DNA of 64,000 nucleotides, taken from the sequence record LR877332. One strand, 5' to 3'. The notes under the pieces were generated by a model. That model was not told the DNA's origin and searched no databases. It saw only the letters and a program-made list of their open reading frames with translations. The translations under genes and the position numbers were made by a program. Every line of letters starts with the position of its first letter. Position 1 is the stretch's first letter. Positions 1 to 44,990 of the stretch are shown here, one piece after another. This stretch comes from Shigella phage vB_SsoM_JK08.

Positions 1-305
1 CAATTTCTAAACATCTCATGCTCTACTGGAATCGTATAATAAAATAACTGTAAGTCTTTATTACTAGAATATTTAAATACACCTAGGTCTTCTAGAAGGT
101 CTGGATTATAATTGCTAAAACCGGTCTCTTCTAAGCATTCTCTTTTTGCAGCTTCCAGTGCATTCAAATCAGAACTTTCTACGCGGCCCTTTGGAATATC
201 CCAGCGATGTGCCATCATTCCAGGCTTACGAGAACCAGTAACCCGACCCATAAATAAATCTTTATCTTCTGTCATAAAGATAATACCAGCTGATAGTGTT
301 TTCAT
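1..305 (-). CDS. nudE: Nudix hydrolase NudE (T4 e.1), 3' end cut by window edge
   Basis: Minus-strand reading frame runs off the window start, ATG at 303-305; translation contains a Nudix box (GRVESSDLNALEAAKRECLEETG). The plus ORF 112..327 in the track is antisense to it. Confidence 0.8.
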   Translation of the reverse strand, partial: MKTLSAGIIFMTEDKDLFMGRVTGSRKPGMMAHRWDIPKGRVESSDLNALEAAKRECLEETGFSNYNPDLLEDLGVFKYSSNKDLQLFYYTIPVEHEMFRN

Positions 306-790
306 TTTAATTTCCTGCATTCAGTGATAAAGTTATTTAAATTTTGAGTATATTTCTTTTCATCAAAAATCTTTTGTTGTCTGCGTAAACGCCATGGCAT
401 TTCAATGAACATACGCCATATTCCTGATAATACTGCTGCTGTAAAAATATTAACAAGTATAGTTAAAAGAACCCAATCTCCTATTCTGTCCATTGGATTT
501 TTTATAAAAAAGTAAAATACGAACGATGATATAGGAAGACTAATGATATACCACAGAAGAACCTTCTTATCTGTGAACCAATCAGCATTCGTTAACTTAG
601 CGCGACCGTTTTGAATACATACGAACTTATCATCTGTTACAGTAAATGGCTTAGCTGCTTGATATCCCATTCTAAACTCCCTAATCAACAAATTTTTCAT
701 ATCTTCGGAACAACCATTCCAGTCAACTCTATCAACTGAAATGCCATCATCCCCATCATCTAAATCATACCAGCGAGTTTTTAAAATCAT
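302..790 (-). CDS. small membrane protein, paralog family member A
   Basis: 162 aa ORF with hydrophobic segments; ATGA overlap with nudE start; C-terminus ...FITECRKLK shares the motif seen in the next three genes. Confidence 0.6.
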   Translation of the reverse strand: MILKTRWYDLDDGDDGISVDRVDWNGCSEDMKNLLIREFRMGYQAAKPFTVTDDKFVCIQNGRAKLTNADWFTDKKVLLWYIISLPISSFVFYFFIKNPMDRIGDWVLLTILVNIFTAAVLSGIWRMFIEMPWRLRRQQKIFDEKKYTQNLNNFITECRKLK

Positions 791-1149
791 TTAATTTTCC
801 TACAATCACTCACAAACTCTTTCATTGACTCATTTTCAATATAAGACATGTAGCTATTATATTCTTTTAATTGTATTTTGTAATCCTTTTTTCTTTGCCA
901 ATTTATTTTAAAATTATCATAATGAAAATATAACATGGTACCAAAGAATGAAAATAATGAAATCGCTATAGTAAAACGAAGTTCACTCCAAACCTCTGTT
1001 ATAATTACTGTGCCGTCGATATTTAAAATAAAACAGTCAATTAACAATCCAATAAGACTACCCGCAAGAGCTGTAAATACTGATACAGCAAGAATTAATA
1101 GTGCCTCAGGAAACGAATATTTGACTTTATTTAGTTTTGGCTTTTGCAT
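787..1149 (-). CDS. small membrane protein, paralog family member B
   Basis: 120 aa, two hydrophobic helices, C-terminus ...MKEFVSDCRKIK; stop overlaps downstream start; AGGAAA Shine-Dalgarno of next gene lies inside its last codons. Confidence 0.6.
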   Translation of the reverse strand: MQKPKLNKVKYSFPEALLILAVSVFTALAGSLIGLLIDCFILNIDGTVIITEVWSELRFTIAISLFSFFGTMLYFHYDNFKINWQRKKDYKIQLKEYNSYMSYIENESMKEFVSDCRKIK

Positions 1150-1523
1150 CGTGATTCCTTAACAAATTTCATAATTTCATCAAATTCATACATATCTAGC
1201 TTAAGCTGGTGTTCCTTTTTAATCTTTTTACACTGAGCTTTCCAATCACGTACACGTTTACGATAATGTCTTCCTTGATACCAGTATCCTACCCAATTTA
1301 CGGGTACTAATAAAAGTGGAACTATTAATGGAAGAATTAGCATTAACACAAGTATTTCGCCAGAATCAATATCAGTCATAACATCTAAAACACCTCCAAT
1401 AATCAATAGAATTACAAATGATATGAGTATAACAGGACCTATTAACACATCAGTAGAAATTATCTGACGCTTTGGTTCATACTTCACAGGTTTACTTGGA
1501 AGGTATAGTGATGGTTTTGACAT
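1131..1523 (-). CDS. small membrane protein, paralog family member C
   Basis: Track ORF 1131..1544 begins at TTG; first ATG (MSKPSL) at 1523; very hydrophobic core; C-terminus ...MKFVKESRCKSQN. Confidence 0.55.
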   Translation of the reverse strand: MSKPSLYLPSKPVKYEPKRQIISTDVLIGPVILISFVILLIIGGVLDVMTDIDSGEILVLMLILPLIVPLLLVPVNWVGYWYQGRHYRKRVRDWKAQCKKIKKEHQLKLDMYEFDEIMKFVKESRCKSQN

Positions 1524-2106
1524 ATTCTCTACATTCCTTAACAAATTTTTCTAGTAATAAATCACTTTCAAAATTGGGATTTTCTACAAATTTATCAAAA
1601 AGATCATCAACAATAGTTAAGATATTCTTTTTACTAAGAATACGTTTATTTTCATGCTTCGTTTCAGAATCAACTATAAGAGTAAAGAAATATTTCTTGC
1701 CCTGAAATTTTACAGTAGTATCAATATAAAATAAATTTGACTTTTGTAAATTACGTTTAAACCATGCGTCACTTAAACTATAAACACCGAGATAATCAAA
1801 ATCGTCGTTTAAATAACAAACCGTCCATTCAGGAGAAATGAAATCAGTAAATTCAACATCAAAATCACACGTCAATGAATGAATTGATTCAATACTGTTA
1901 ATGAGTATTCCAGGACGTATTAAAGACTTTTTACCTCTAGAAAATCTTCCGGAAAGGCTTTCATCAGTTTCATATGAAGACCCCCAATAGTAATTACGTC
2001 CTTCTGCCATGCGTTTAAGAGCATTTAGTAATTGGTCTGGAACATCAACCTGTCTTTGGAACTCTTCAAACATTGAATTGAAATCACTTTGCATTTTCAT
2101 TTTCAT
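1492..2106 (-). CDS. hypothetical protein
   Basis: 204 aa ORF; C-terminus ...EKFVKECREYVKT carries the same junction motif and overlaps the start of the downstream gene. Confidence 0.6.
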   Translation of the reverse strand: MKMKMQSDFNSMFEEFQRQVDVPDQLLNALKRMAEGRNYYWGSSYETDESLSGRFSRGKKSLIRPGILINSIESIHSLTCDFDVEFTDFISPEWTVCYLNDDFDYLGVYSLSDAWFKRNLQKSNLFYIDTTVKFQGKKYFFTLIVDSETKHENKRILSKKNILTIVDDLFDKFVENPNFESDLLLEKFVKECREYVKTITIPSK

Positions 2107-2147
2107 TCCTATTTACTCCAAGTATAAGGGGCCGAAGCCCCTTATCA

Positions 2148-2741
2148 TTATTTCAGAGAATTAATGTATTCCTGAACATCGGCAGAGGTAGTTTCAACCC
2201 CAGAAATATTACCGTTAAAGGTTTCAACTCGAGCAAGGGTATCTTCAATATCAACCTTAGTCAGTGCTGCAATTTCAACTACATCATCAGCAGTACTAAT
2301 TCCAAGGGCATTTGCTGCACGAGTTTCACGGATATATTCCAATTTAACCGCAAGTTCTTGACGAGCATCATCTAACTCAACTACTTTCTTGGCGATTTCA
2401 ATTCGCATTTCAGCATAACCGTCAGCCTTAGTAGTCAACTGCTCAGCTGTTCGACGATATAGTAAACCGAGTTTAGCATGCATTGTTACATCTTGGCCTT
2501 CGGAAAGAAGTTTACGAATTTCACGCTCTTTTGATTCGGCCTGTCGATTCTTTTCGATAACAAGTTCACGAATACGTTTTTCTTCGTTAATAGATTTAAC
2601 AGAAGCAGTTTTTAGATCTTTAATTTTATCAAGTAGTTTTGCTGCTGCAGCAGTATACTGTTCTTCGACAGATAGATTTTTAGCCATAGCAGAACCAAGT
2701 TTAGTGCGAATAAACTCAACAATTTTCTTCAGTGTGTTCAT
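2148..2741 (-). CDS. coiled-coil protein, possibly PspA/IM30-like
   Basis: 197 aa, charged heptad-like sequence throughout, amphipathic N-terminus; promoter-early stem-loop immediately upstream. Confidence 0.6.
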
Positions 2742-2807
2742 AGTATTTCCTTAGGTTAATTGAGATTTAAAATCCGTAGGAGTATAATACTCTATCGTCA
2801 AATTATA

Positions 2808-2842
2808 GGCTCATAATATCTCAATCATGAGCCTGCGTAAAC
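2808..2842 (-). promoter_or_regulatory. early promoter with stem-loop (PeSL-like)
   Basis: On minus strand GTTTAC -35, about 18 nt spacer, TATTAT -10 embedded in inverted repeat GGCTCAT...ATGAGCC; upstream of gene 2148..2741. Confidence 0.5.
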
Positions 2843-3106
2843 TTATTTCATATTATTGAAATATTCTTCTGCGATTTCGTCGTTATCATGGTAAACTTTA
2901 GAAGACAGTTTAACATAACCTTCTGCTGTGAACATATTAATCACAACTTTTACAGTATACCACTGACCGTCTTCATTACCCATTACTGCGTAAGTTTCAA
3001 ACATCGGATGATCAGGACCGATAACTTTAATATCATTCACTGTACGACCGAAATCTTCTGAAACGCATTTCATAAAGAAGTTGAACAGTTCGCCGTAATT
3101 ATCCAT
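2843..3106 (-). CDS. hypothetical protein
   Basis: Start set at ATG 3104-3106 (MDNYGELF) with GGAG 8 nt upstream; the longer track ORF to 3226 lacks a ribosome-binding site. Confidence 0.5.
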   Translation of the reverse strand: MDNYGELFNFFMKCVSEDFGRTVNDIKVIGPDHPMFETYAVMGNEDGQWYTVKVVINMFTAEGYVKLSSKVYHDNDEIAEEYFNNMK

Positions 3107-3149
3107 TTCATTCTCCAAGTTGTTTTCTGTATCAGTAGTTGATAGTTGT

Positions 3150-3178
3150 ATAGTACCATGGAAGAACAGAGATGTAAA
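3150..3178 (-). promoter_or_regulatory. early sigma70-like promoter
   Basis: Minus strand TTTACA, 17 nt spacer, TACTAT; preceded by TTTCACAAA block shared with the ipI-locus promoters. Confidence 0.45.
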
Positions 3179-3335
3179 CAGTTTTGTGAAAAAATTTTTA
3201 GGGAATTCTAGGGCAGGGATGGGCAATTAAAGGATAGGATAATATATTATAAAGGGTATAAACTAAATGATGCCTAGAGAGGTCCAGAAAGGCCTAGATA
3301 CCAAAAAGCCCTATCATTTAGATAGGGATTTAAAA

Positions 3336-43571: not shown

Positions 43572-44990
43572 TTATGGATAGGTATAGATGATACCAGTTT
43601 CTAAAGCAGTTTTATGAATGATGTATCCATTACGCGATTCTTGGACATCAACTTCTGGATAGTCTTTAATCATCTTCTGAAGAGTGTAACGATGCAGGTA
43701 GTATTTACTATCTGGGTCGTCAGTTTTCCAATCTTTACCTTCTTCGGTCATTTTTTGGATTTCATCCATAACCCACCAACCGCACCAGATATAAGCTGAA
43801 GTACGATGTGGAAGAGGATGAACATAAGGTAGTTCACCTTCTGGTTCTGGAGCAACTTTATCAGTTACCTGAACTTGACCTTCTGCTGTAATAGTTTTGC
43901 TATCGTAATCAGTTGCAGTAACGACAGCAGTAACTTCAATAGTTTGACTTCCAACAGATGAGGTATCGACAGTATATACGTTAGTTGACCCTTCTACAGG
44001 AGAAGAATCTTTCTTCCATGAGTAAGTAATTTGTGCTTCTTCTGGAGCACCCGTAACATTAGCCGTAAATGTAGCCGAAGCATCTTGCTGAACGTTAATA
44101 GAAGGAGGAGTCAATGTAACCTGTGGATTCATTGTTTTCTTATTAACAGTCAATGATACTTCATTAGAAGTAACTTCCTTTTCATTGTAATTTTCTGCAG
44201 TTACTTGCGCTACACACTTAACTGTTTTAGCTCCAACTGTGGTAGGAGTATAGTTAAATGTAGTAGTAGTTTCTCCATCGACCAGAGAACCGTCAACATA
44301 CCACTGATACGTAGCAGACGCTCCTGGTGGCTGTGAATCCAAGGCAGCAGTAAATTGAACTGGGGTTCCAATTACTCCGGCAGCAGGATTAGCAGGAGTT
44401 ACGGCTAACGTAGTCGTCTGCGTCTTTTTATTAACAGTCAATGATACTTCATTAGAAGTAACGCTTAGTGCATCATAATCTGCCGCAGTTACTTGAGCTA
44501 CACACTTGATTTTTTTAACTCCGCTTGTGTCAGGAGTGTAATTGAATGTAGCGTCAGTTGCTTCGTCTACAGGAGAACCGTCAACGTGCCATTGATACGT
44601 AGCGTTTGCACCTGATGGCTGTGAAGCTAAGGCAGCGGTAAATTCAATTGGAGTTCCAATCACTCCAGCATCAGGGCTACCAGGAGTTACAGCTAAAGTA
44701 GTTGTTTGTGTCTTATTTTGAACTGTGATAGTTGTACTAATTTCTGCTGTTTCAGGTTCAGATTCTGCAACTTGATTGGTTGCAACTACTTTAATAGTCT
44801 TTTGACCGGCAGGTCCTTTTAGTACATAACTAAAAGTTGCTGACGTTTCTTCCTGTGGAGCGTCGTCTACAGTCCAAGCATATGTAATAGGTCCATCTCC
44901 AGTTTGACCACTGGGTGTAGCAGTAAACTGCTGAGTCTGATCTATAACTCCAGTAGGTGTTTTAGGAGTTATATCAACTGTAAAAGTCAT
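43572..44990 (-). CDS. hoc: Hoc outer capsid decoration protein, enlarged
   Basis: 472 aa (T4 376); tandem Ig-like modules with recurring motifs (ATYQWxVDGSxVD); conserved C-terminal capsid-binding segment. Confidence 0.85.
   Translation of the reverse strand: MTFTVDITPKTPTGVIDQTQQFTATPSGQTGDGPITYAWTVDDAPQEETSATFSYVLKGPAGQKTIKVVATNQVAESEPETAEISTTITVQNKTQTTTLAVTPGSPDAGVIGTPIEFTAALASQPSGANATYQWHVDGSPVDEATDATFNYTPDTSGVKKIKCVAQVTAADYDALSVTSNEVSLTVNKKTQTTTLAVTPANPAAGVIGTPVQFTAALDSQPPGASATYQWYVDGSLVDGETTTTFNYTPTTVGAKTVKCVAQVTAENYNEKEVTSNEVSLTVNKKTMNPQVTLTPPSINVQQDASATFTANVTGAPEEAQITYSWKKDSSPVEGSTNVYTVDTSSVGSQTIEVTAVVTATDYDSKTITAEGQVQVTDKVAPEPEGELPYVHPLPHRTSAYIWCGWWVMDEIQKMTEEGKDWKTDDPDSKYYLHRYTLQKMIKDYPEVDVQESRNGYIIHKTALETGIIYTYP
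44140..44715 (-). repeat. internal tandem duplication of an Ig-like domain within hoc
   Basis: Two adjacent blocks of about 95 codons nearly identical at protein level and sharing long identical nucleotide runs (for example TTATTAACAGTCAATGATACTTCATTAGAAGTAAC twice). Confidence 0.7.

Follow-up and report, generated by a model that had tools for sequence, protein, structure and literature searches.

Four consecutive early genes of Shigella phage vB_SsoM_JK08, e.5, e.4, e.3 and e.2, encode proteins that carry one and the same short peptide at or near their C-termini. They lie in a 64,000-nucleotide (nt) stretch of sequence record LR877332, called the window here. The shared tail is probably helical and predicted to be cytoplasmic, it sits on bodies that are mostly unrelated to one another, and, judged from its codon positions, it is maintained by selection on the amino acids. 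The DNA that encodes the gene ends is repeated from junction to junction, and the repeats coincide with precise natural gene losses. We lean, if only slightly, towards an overall picture in which a selected shared tail, coding junctions that act as breakpoints and a shared role of the four proteins belong together; the specific role suggested below, docking or oligomerization through the tail, is offered more tentatively.

A shared C-terminal tail

Over bases 1-3300 the window matches Yersinia phage PYps35T and Escherichia phage a15 at 100% identity, and about 500 records at more than 90%. By this identity it comes from a Tequatrovirus (T4-like) genome, in which the four genes correspond to T4 e.5, e.4, e.3 and e.2. 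The gene names are taken from annotated relatives; the Tequatrovirus entries are 84-100% identical, and the gene order upstream of nudE and e is unchanged. A sequence-only reading of this DNA had singled out four open reading frames (ORFs), three of them encoding two hydrophobic helices. All four are present on the minus strand at the coordinates it gave, and the paired helices are found in e.4, e.3 and e.2, e.5 having none. The genes and their tail units are as follows (TM, transmembrane; aa, amino acids).

1492..2106, minus strand: e.5, 204 aa, soluble, without TM helix; phrog_2607
1528..1554, minus strand: e.5 tail unit LEKFVKECR, followed by EYVKTITIPSK, which overlaps the e.4 start
1131..1523, minus strand: e.4, 130 aa, two TM helices (about 1377..1433 and 1299..1355), predicted N-in/C-in; phrog_2604, precomputed PF26873
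1227..1253, minus strand: e.4 internal Cys-bearing unit VRDWKAQCK
1149..1166, minus strand: e.4 terminal Cys-less copy FVKESR
787..1149, minus strand: e.3, 120 aa, two TM helices (about 1039..1095 and 925..981), predicted N-in/C-in; phrog_2330; paralog of e.4
799..825, minus strand: e.3 tail unit MKEFVSDCR
302..790, minus strand: e.2, 162 aa, a 77-aa N-terminal cytoplasmic domain (W.xLDDGDxGI..VDWxGC) ahead of two TM helices (about 503..559 and 419..475); phrog_2203, precomputed PF26896
314..340, minus strand: e.2 tail unit LNNFITECR

The PHROG profiles match with E-values from 1e-58 to 1e-110, and the two Pfam assignments are precomputed ones on close homologs.

The proteins end with ...MKFVKESRCKSQN (e.4), ...MKEFVSDCRKIK (e.3), ...NNFITECRKLK (e.2) and ...EKFVKECREYVKTITIPSK (e.5). 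The sequence-only reading had noticed the motif, which is indeed on all four; it had clipped the end of e.5, where the motif lies 11 residues from the terminus. The tail follows the consensus L-[N/E]-x-F-[I/V]-x-E-C-R-[K/E], which can be generalized to Φ-x-x-[F/W]-x-x-x-C-[K/R]. In e.4 the Cys-bearing unit is internal (VRDWKAQCK, with invariant W94 and C98) and the terminal copy, KFVKESR, is without Cys. A six-frame scan of the window for the loose motif F[IV].[ED][CSIV][RK] yields five occurrences, four of which are these genes. Likewise, across a whole 168-kb T4-like relative (phage HP3, KY608967.1, 98% identical in sequence to the window) the strict motif is seen three times versus 0.135 expected, every time in e.5, e.3 or e.2, and no other real gene of that genome carries F-[IV]-x-[ED]-[CS]-R. 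Given that the six-frame counts are far above expectation, a chance origin of the motif is excluded. The record KY608967.1 is flagged UNVERIFIED, and its taxonomy line reads Rosemountvirus for a sequence that is itself Tequatrovirus.

Homologous regions of Mosigvirus, Gaprivervirus (VR25-like) and Dhakavirus (JS10/JS98-like) were located by the conserved neighbor e.6, and the motif is present in every homolog of the four-genus set. The tails read QFIMECREY, EFVKEIRC and NFIKECRK-stop in Mosigvirus, and RFI[KAT]ECREYAK, EFIKEVRNGTA, TFIKECKS-stop and [ND]FIEECRK-stop in Gaprivervirus and Dhakavirus. A generalized unit, [LIVMA]-x-x-[FWY]-x-x-x-C-[KRAV], occurs exactly once per protein in 40 out of 40 proteins, versus about one occurrence in total among shuffled sequences. 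In IMG/VR the exact DNA pattern for FIxECRK plus ATGA returns T-even contigs only, barring about 12 chance matches that do not close an ORF, and neither the four-genus e.2 profile nor a degenerate DNA pattern adds a genus; by these profile and pattern searches the tail family is not found beyond Tequatrovirus, Mosigvirus, Gaprivervirus and Dhakavirus.

Two further copies deserve mention. A 101-aa two-TM protein (phrog_9798), called x9 here, ends with ...LENFIKECRGK; it is encoded several kb from e.3 and e.4 in one Mosigvirus (L009, 9852..10157, plus strand) and is not present in another (L002). Within e.5, a second, Cys-less copy of the start of the tail (LFDKFVEN; window 1583..1597, minus strand) stands 14 residues upstream of LLEKFVKECR, and it was also detected at the DNA level by a repeat finder (family D1). 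A cleavage site for the gp21 prohead protease (L/I-x-E) was considered for the tail and rejected, given that Tequatrovirus e.3 has Asp at that position and that the carriers are early membrane proteins.

Selection on the peptide

Is the tail kept as a peptide or as a piece of messenger RNA? We compared 37 distinct motif contexts from the four genera. The first and second codon positions of the F, E, C and R residues are invariant or nearly so, and the third positions are free: Cys is encoded by TGT (17) and TGC (14), and Arg by CGT (12), AGG (9), AGA (6), CGC (4) and CGA (2). The location of the Shine-Dalgarno sequence in the tail varies by junction, falling on K-E, E-E, C-R-K or R-G-K codons. 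In the soluble protein that occupies the e.5 slot of Gaprivervirus and Dhakavirus (e5B), the Shine-Dalgarno sequence is downstream of the motif and the motif is conserved all the same. Because conservation follows codon position, the Shine-Dalgarno sites shift and the motif is kept where it holds no such site, these comparisons argue for selection on the peptide. The tail is rich in Lys, Glu and Arg and stands at the gene end; its purine-rich codons therefore also hold the Shine-Dalgarno sequence of the next gene, and by the same comparisons the ribosome-binding site exploits these codons rather than causing the motif. The sequence-only reading had held that, if the bodies of the proteins showed no similarity, the motif would be a by-product of a conserved ribosome-binding junction. 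This proves to be a false dichotomy, since all three of the observations above speak for selection on the peptide.

Topology and relationships of the tail-bearing proteins

The positive-inside rule predicts an N-in/C-in topology for e.4, e.3 and e.2, which would place all tails in the cytoplasm, alongside soluble e.5. Among Tequatrovirus sequences, conservation is among the highest in the tail and the juxtamembrane stretch, and the TM helices and loops vary. The tail is probably helical, its hydrophobic positions following a heptad-like pattern with L at -3, F at 0, I or V at +1, C at +4 and L, I or Y at +7. Its mean hydrophobicity is negative and its hydrophobic moment only 0.34-0.45, which makes an in-plane, membrane-binding amphipathic helix unlikely. 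Given the heptad-like pattern and the moderate moment, helix-helix docking fits better than membrane binding.

Pairwise BLASTP among the four proteins aligns the tails only (E 0.006-0.1), and profile comparisons were therefore used. In hhalign, e.3 and e.4 align colinearly across 115 columns (probability 92%, E 5.7e-7). Without the tails the score is still 22.5-24.8, versus 11.2±2.3 for a column-shuffled null, and 0 of 100 shuffles reach it (z about 5). Their N-termini are similar (MSKPSL and MQKPKL), and Gaprivervirus e.4 also matches the e.3 PHROG. By these profile comparisons e.3 and e.4 are true paralogs. Shuffling the body columns but not the tail makes no difference to the scores of e.2 with e.3, e.2 with x9 and e.3 with x9 (z about 0), and e.2 with e.4 gives z 1.4; in these controlled comparisons nothing beyond the tail links e.2 or e.5 to e.3 and e.4. 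Thus the tandem family proposed by the sequence-only reading holds for the bodies of e.3 and e.4, whereas e.2 and e.5 share the tail alone.

The e.5 slot itself holds two soluble proteins, e5A in Tequatrovirus and Mosigvirus and e5B (phrog_8788) in Gaprivervirus and Dhakavirus. They match each other with E 7e-6 when the tail is included and with P 0.35 when it is not, and BLASTP of e.5 against the slot protein of VR25 aligns a sole stretch, L.[KR]F[VI]KECREY.K. An exhaustive HMMER search with e.5 finds only six matches among 1.84e9 representative proteins: e.5 itself, a Mosigvirus representative, fragments and one spurious repeat protein, none of which points to a function.

Junction DNA

The four genes and nudE show the features of an overlapping gene string: they share a strand, each stop overlaps the next start, and the Shine-Dalgarno sequences lie within the upstream ORFs. 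The overlaps measure 32 nt (e.5/e.4) and 19 nt (e.4/e.3), followed by ATGA at e.3/e.2 and again at e.2/nudE, where nudE starts at 305; these overlaps of 32, 19, 4 and 4 nt agree with the contiguous, overlapping arrangement first read from the sequence. AAGGA or AGGA precedes every downstream ATG by 6-11 nt, inside or adjoining the motif codons, so that the motif DNA does supply the next Shine-Dalgarno sequence, as had been claimed. The overlap geometry suggests that e.5-e.4-e.3-e.2-nudE is probably one translationally coupled string. The repetition noticed by the sequence-only reading is also real. It had taken the repeat for a single element; there are two distinct short ones, a 16-mer common to the e.5/e.4 and e.4/e.3 junctions and an 18-mer, TGYAGGAAAWTWAAATGA, common to the e.3/e.2 and e.2/nudE junctions.

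1533..1548, minus strand: exact 16-mer AAATTTGTTAAGGAAT, copy 1, codons K-F-V-K-E-; holds the AAGGA Shine-Dalgarno sequence of e.4
1154..1169, minus strand: exact 16-mer AAATTTGTTAAGGAAT, copy 2; AAGGA 6 nt before the e.3 ATG (1147..1149)
787..804, minus strand: near-exact 18-nt block TGTAGGAAAATTAAATGA, encoding C-R-K-I-K-stop, with AGGA Shine-Dalgarno sequence and ATGA overlap with the e.2 start
302..319, minus strand: near-exact 18-nt block TGCAGGAAATTAAAATGA, encoding C-R-K-L-K-stop, with AGGA Shine-Dalgarno sequence and ATGA overlap with the nudE start (305)
1..305, minus strand: 5' part of nudE (e.1, Nudix hydrolase), with which the overlapping string ends; continues beyond the window edge

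Each of the two repeats is essentially unique in the 64 kb. A third near-match to the junction block falls within a Hoc-like gene, at 44182, and was judged to be chance. An Rfam scan of the junctions returns only a spurious microRNA match (E 0.44), and no significant hairpin or promoter is found at the four junctions, the only hairpin being that of the e.6/e.5 spacer.

Junctions as breakpoints of gene loss

About 55 of the roughly 500 Tequatrovirus records, those of T2-type phages, are without exactly e.2. Their e.3-nudE junction consists of the left half of the e.3/e.2 block and the right half of the e.2/nudE block, the latter being the 18-nt block at 302..319. Dhakaviruses, in turn, are without e.4; their e.5-slot protein ends with ...ECREYAKEVQNGTA and a stop, a hybrid of the e5B and e.4 tails, and the e.3 start follows directly. 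On these comparisons, the short repeats at successive junctions coincide with precise natural gene losses. The end of e.3 with its ATGA leads into e.2 in Tequatrovirus and into nudE in T2; in the other genera it leads into the first member of a different small-gene array. The Tequatrovirus e.5 tail reads KFVKE, encoded by the same 16 nt as the e.4 tail, and that of Mosigvirus reads QFIME; it is possible that the Tequatrovirus e.5 tail was gene-converted by e.4.

Across 643 Tequatrovirus and Mosigvirus records, an e.5-type gene and e.4 occur in all 643, e.3 in 632 and e.2 in 533. In UFV-type phages e.4(1-31) and e.2(88-162) are fused in frame within the first TM helix, not at a junction, which leaves a minimal array of e.5 and one tail-bearing chimeric membrane protein. 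One Mosigvirus has an internal deletion in e.3 that keeps the tail and the junction. The e.2 of reference T4 is annotated at only 309 nt and represents a truncated allele; 102-aa e.2 alleles truncated after the first TM helix are found in at least 22 member sequences (see P0192). Since truncated alleles recur, e.2 appears to be often inactivated by frameshift besides precise deletion.

Other variants were noted along the way. Some Tequatrovirus e.4 alleles (P0132 and P0135) have a wholly different first TM helix and periplasmic loop (VEIIPVIMFTISTIIGFIILEHNKNASRE) and are otherwise identical to the product of 1131..1523, a mosaic exchange that affects the membrane and periplasmic part only. 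One Dhakavirus e5B allele (L014, 6595..7107, plus strand) has an internal deletion of about 26 aa, giving 154 aa versus 178-184, with the tail kept.

Neighboring genes and annotation

Two features upstream of e.5 border the string, and a second type of array occupies the slot after e.3 in the other genera.

2148..2741, minus strand: e.6, 197 aa, of helical or coiled-coil appearance, upstream of e.5
2124..2145 (and 2121..2148), minus strand: GC-rich hairpin GGGGCUUCGGCCCC with a UUCG loop in the e.6/e.5 spacer; annotated as a terminator in phage MM02
L002 1867..2661 (minus), L009 7700..8494 (plus) and L010 7862..9112 (plus): WVSSS-family arrays; first copy matches phrog_899

The hairpin forms the upstream limit of the overlapping e.5-to-nudE string. 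It overlaps weak sigma-70-like hexamers (ATGATA-16-TATACT), a PeSL-like layout (PeSL cassettes are described below). The protein e.6 is by far the most conserved of the cluster, with 74-88% identity across genera. Searches of Pfam, NCBIfam and Protein Data Bank (PDB) sequences give no match for it, and the label 'host specificity protein' that it bears in some records is without visible support; a PspA-like identity was also considered and rejected, as the PDB sequence search and Pfam lend it no support. The array after e.3 in Mosigvirus, Gaprivervirus and Dhakavirus consists of three to five or more small soluble paralogs of 65-100 aa in tandem. All WVSSS-family copies end with G-x-W-V-s-S-S-x-x-C and a stop, with TAAGGAA-N5-ATG leading into the following copy; here, too, a C-terminal Cys motif recurs from one gene junction to another.

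Curated libraries list e.2-e.5 as four separate families with no assigned function (PHROGs 2607, 2604, 2330 and 2203; Pfam PF26873 and PF26896), and GenBank and UniProt label them 'conserved hypothetical, predicted membrane protein'. Scanned against Pfam, NCBIfam and PADLOC, they give nothing above threshold. Several GenBank and RefSeq entries name e.3, e.4 or e.5 'sulfurtransferase', 'DNA primase', 'major capsid protein', 'serine decarboxylase' or 'phosphoserine phosphatase'. None of these names is backed by a profile, and they therefore look like propagated annotation errors; for 'sulfurtransferase' on e.3 and e.4, no rhodanese, TusA-type or other model matches in Pfam or NCBIfam at E up to 1. 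In phage T4 the transcripts of all four genes are classed as early, and proteomics detects all four proteins, e.4 and e.5 as early, e.2 as middle and e.3 as late (PMC9697503, supplements).

Discussion

The picture that we favor is that several early genes share a short cytoplasmic helical tail on mostly unrelated bodies, its bearers being the e.3/e.4 pair, e.2, x9 in some Mosigviruses and two different soluble proteins in the e.5 slot. The junction repeats would act as recombination breakpoints at which whole genes are removed or joined with reading frame, ribosome-binding site and start codon intact. The tail itself may be a common docking or oligomerization helix, through which soluble e.5 and the interchangeable anchors e.2, e.3 and e.4 would associate, either with each other or with a single conserved partner, on the cytoplasmic side of the inner membrane; specificity would come from the variable TM and periplasmic parts. 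A hetero-assembly or a common partner is suggested because a constant tail sits on variable anchors and a soluble protein has the identical tail type. Given its 74-88% identity across genera, e.6 is a candidate for such a partner.

Several observations weigh against this picture. The terminal copy of e.4 is without the Cys, and in Tequatrovirus e.3 an Asp takes the place of the Glu found in the others. The different timing classes of the T4 proteins argue against strict equimolar coupling, and, as every membrane member is individually dispensable in nature, any complex would not be obligatory. All data come from four related genera, so that the 37 contexts do not count as independent. Colinear PHROG cross-hits (e.4 to e.3, e.3 to e.2, x9 to e.2), weak at E about 0.002, would be compatible with 'unrelated' bodies that are homologous but extremely diverged; they are too weak to demonstrate so ancient a common origin of the membrane proteins. 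Junction RNA folds are not significant (z from -1.4 to +1.6), and no sequestering structure is predicted. AlphaFold2 models of e.5 (from a single sequence; predicted local distance difference test score, pLDDT, 38) and of e.2 (17 sequences; pLDDT 50) are too poor to use.

Might the tail be no more than what is left of a common ancestor? One ancestral gene could have been duplicated in tandem, the tail being its last recognizable remnant, kept in each protein on its own account, for example for folding or stability, and serving no common partner. The paralogy of e.3 and e.4 with their similar N-termini, the architecture common to e.2, e.3, e.4 and x9 (a pair of TM helices, then a basic juxtamembrane stretch and a further helix ahead of the tail) and the weak PHROG cross-hits are all in keeping with this. 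However, e5A and e5B are soluble, differ in size and have bodies like neither the membrane proteins nor one another, the profile scores among e.2, x9 and e.3 derive entirely from the tail, and duplication leaves unexplained why the tail is the best-conserved segment on such unlike bodies; we consider it unlikely. Concerted evolution, in which gene conversion or unequal crossing-over copies one 3' gene-end cassette to its neighbors with no common protein function, strikes us as distinctly less probable still. It would account for the 16 nt that e.5 shares with e.4 in Tequatrovirus, where Mosigvirus has QFIME, for the hybrid junctions and exact cassette losses at repeats, and for the presence of one tail and junction before different downstream genes (e.2, nudE and a WVSSS-family gene). 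Yet ortholog-specific features persist across genera (S, I or V for Cys plus RCKS in e.4, ECREY.K in the e.5 type), tails within a genome are not systematically more alike than orthologous tails, and the codon positions bear the mark of purifying selection on the peptide; a tail may well be spread by conversion, but its retention is not accounted for in this way.

The remaining explanations concern what the tail, or its DNA, does in each gene by itself. As a C-terminal degron or protease-protection tag for a host protease (FtsH, Lon or ClpXP), it would give the early proteins a common lifetime, which suits its cytoplasmic C-terminal location on otherwise unrelated early proteins and the dispensability of each of them. 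We hold this to be very unlikely: between the motif and the true C-terminus of e.5 and e.4 there are 5-15, or about 31, residues, which is unusual for terminal degrons, and the accumulation classes of the proteins differ. We know of no degradation tag that the tail resembles. It appears extremely improbable that the motif merely follows from a conserved junction for ribosome binding and gene overlap, with the mRNA selected and the peptide incidental. Every downstream Shine-Dalgarno sequence does lie in or beside tail codons, the ATG is mostly within -1 to +10 nt of the Arg codon, and exact 16-nt and near-exact 18-nt repeats exist. Nevertheless, codon-position conservation with free third positions and with AGR as well as CGN Arg codons essentially refutes it, and four different Shine-Dalgarno positions relative to the motif, the e5B motif that has no internal Shine-Dalgarno sequence, and the junctions, with no RNA structure and no Rfam family, all speak against it; moreover, a purine-rich Shine-Dalgarno sequence leaves F, I/V and Cys unexplained. 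There is, finally, hardly any likelihood that the tail acts in cis as a nascent peptide, modulating elongation or termination so that the same ribosome re-initiates. Because the Arg codon is mostly -1 to +10 nt from the ATG, F-I-x-E-C-R would stand in the upper exit tunnel when the ribosome is at the next start. If so, coupling would be encoded at the peptide level, and the same tail on unrelated proteins at coupled junctions would be explained. A less radical speculation would have three or four tails form a Cys-lined helical bundle that gives a novel early membrane complex its metal or redox site.

Comparison with known systems

About half of the T4 genes are still without a function, e.2-e.5 among them. 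One selected tail on a soluble protein and on interchangeable membrane proteins would be the first concrete, testable link among these ORFans, its practical impact remaining modest unless a phenotype emerges, be it exclusion, anti-defense or membrane protection. A literature search, with the T4 genome review outside its reach, found no functional study of e.2-e.5. The genes are known as T4 ORFs; as far as that search reached, the shared tail, the e.3/e.4 paralogy and the junction breakpoints are undescribed.

The T-even phages encode small, early, non-essential inner-membrane proteins for superinfection exclusion, Imm and Sp, with variable membrane and periplasmic parts. In general character, e.2-e.4 resemble them as small, early, non-essential membrane proteins with variable membrane parts, and the sequence-only reading had named superinfection exclusion and host takeover as possibilities. 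Pfam, PHROG, NCBIfam and PADLOC scans give no match of the Imm/Sp or anti-phage defense type for e.2-e.5, and we know of no report that Imm or Sp share a cytoplasmic tail or partner a soluble protein. With regard to expression, ATGA overlaps with the Shine-Dalgarno sequence in the upstream ORF are common in T4 and in bacterial operons. The e.5-nudE string, with its overlaps of 4-32 nt and AAGGA or AGGA 6-11 nt before the starts, has the geometry of any such set of coupled genes. Ordinary coupled junctions, however, impose no shared selected peptide, whereas the upstream proteins of e.2-e.5 carry one.

The closest parallel in recombination is with the PeSL cassettes of T4-type phages, repeats at the gene boundaries of hyperplastic regions (Arbiol et al. 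2010, PMC2839356; Comeau et al. 2014, PMC4122927). Recombination between PeSLs deletes, inserts or swaps non-essential genes and leaves the expression signals intact (PMC2839356). Similarly, the loss of e.2 in T2-type phages and of e.4 in Dhakavirus, both with hybrid junctions, points to recombination between repeats at gene boundaries. A PeSL has a sigma-70-like early promoter and a stem-loop terminator in an intergenic spacer, neither of which is found at the four coding-overlap junctions; the e.2-e.5 repeats are coding instead, and carry the Shine-Dalgarno sequence and the start codon. A short stretch of DNA would thus serve three roles, as protein motif, ribosome-binding site and recombination breakpoint, and non-essential genes could be gained or lost without disturbing the expression of the remaining operon, in what may be regarded as a coding counterpart of the PeSL cassettes.

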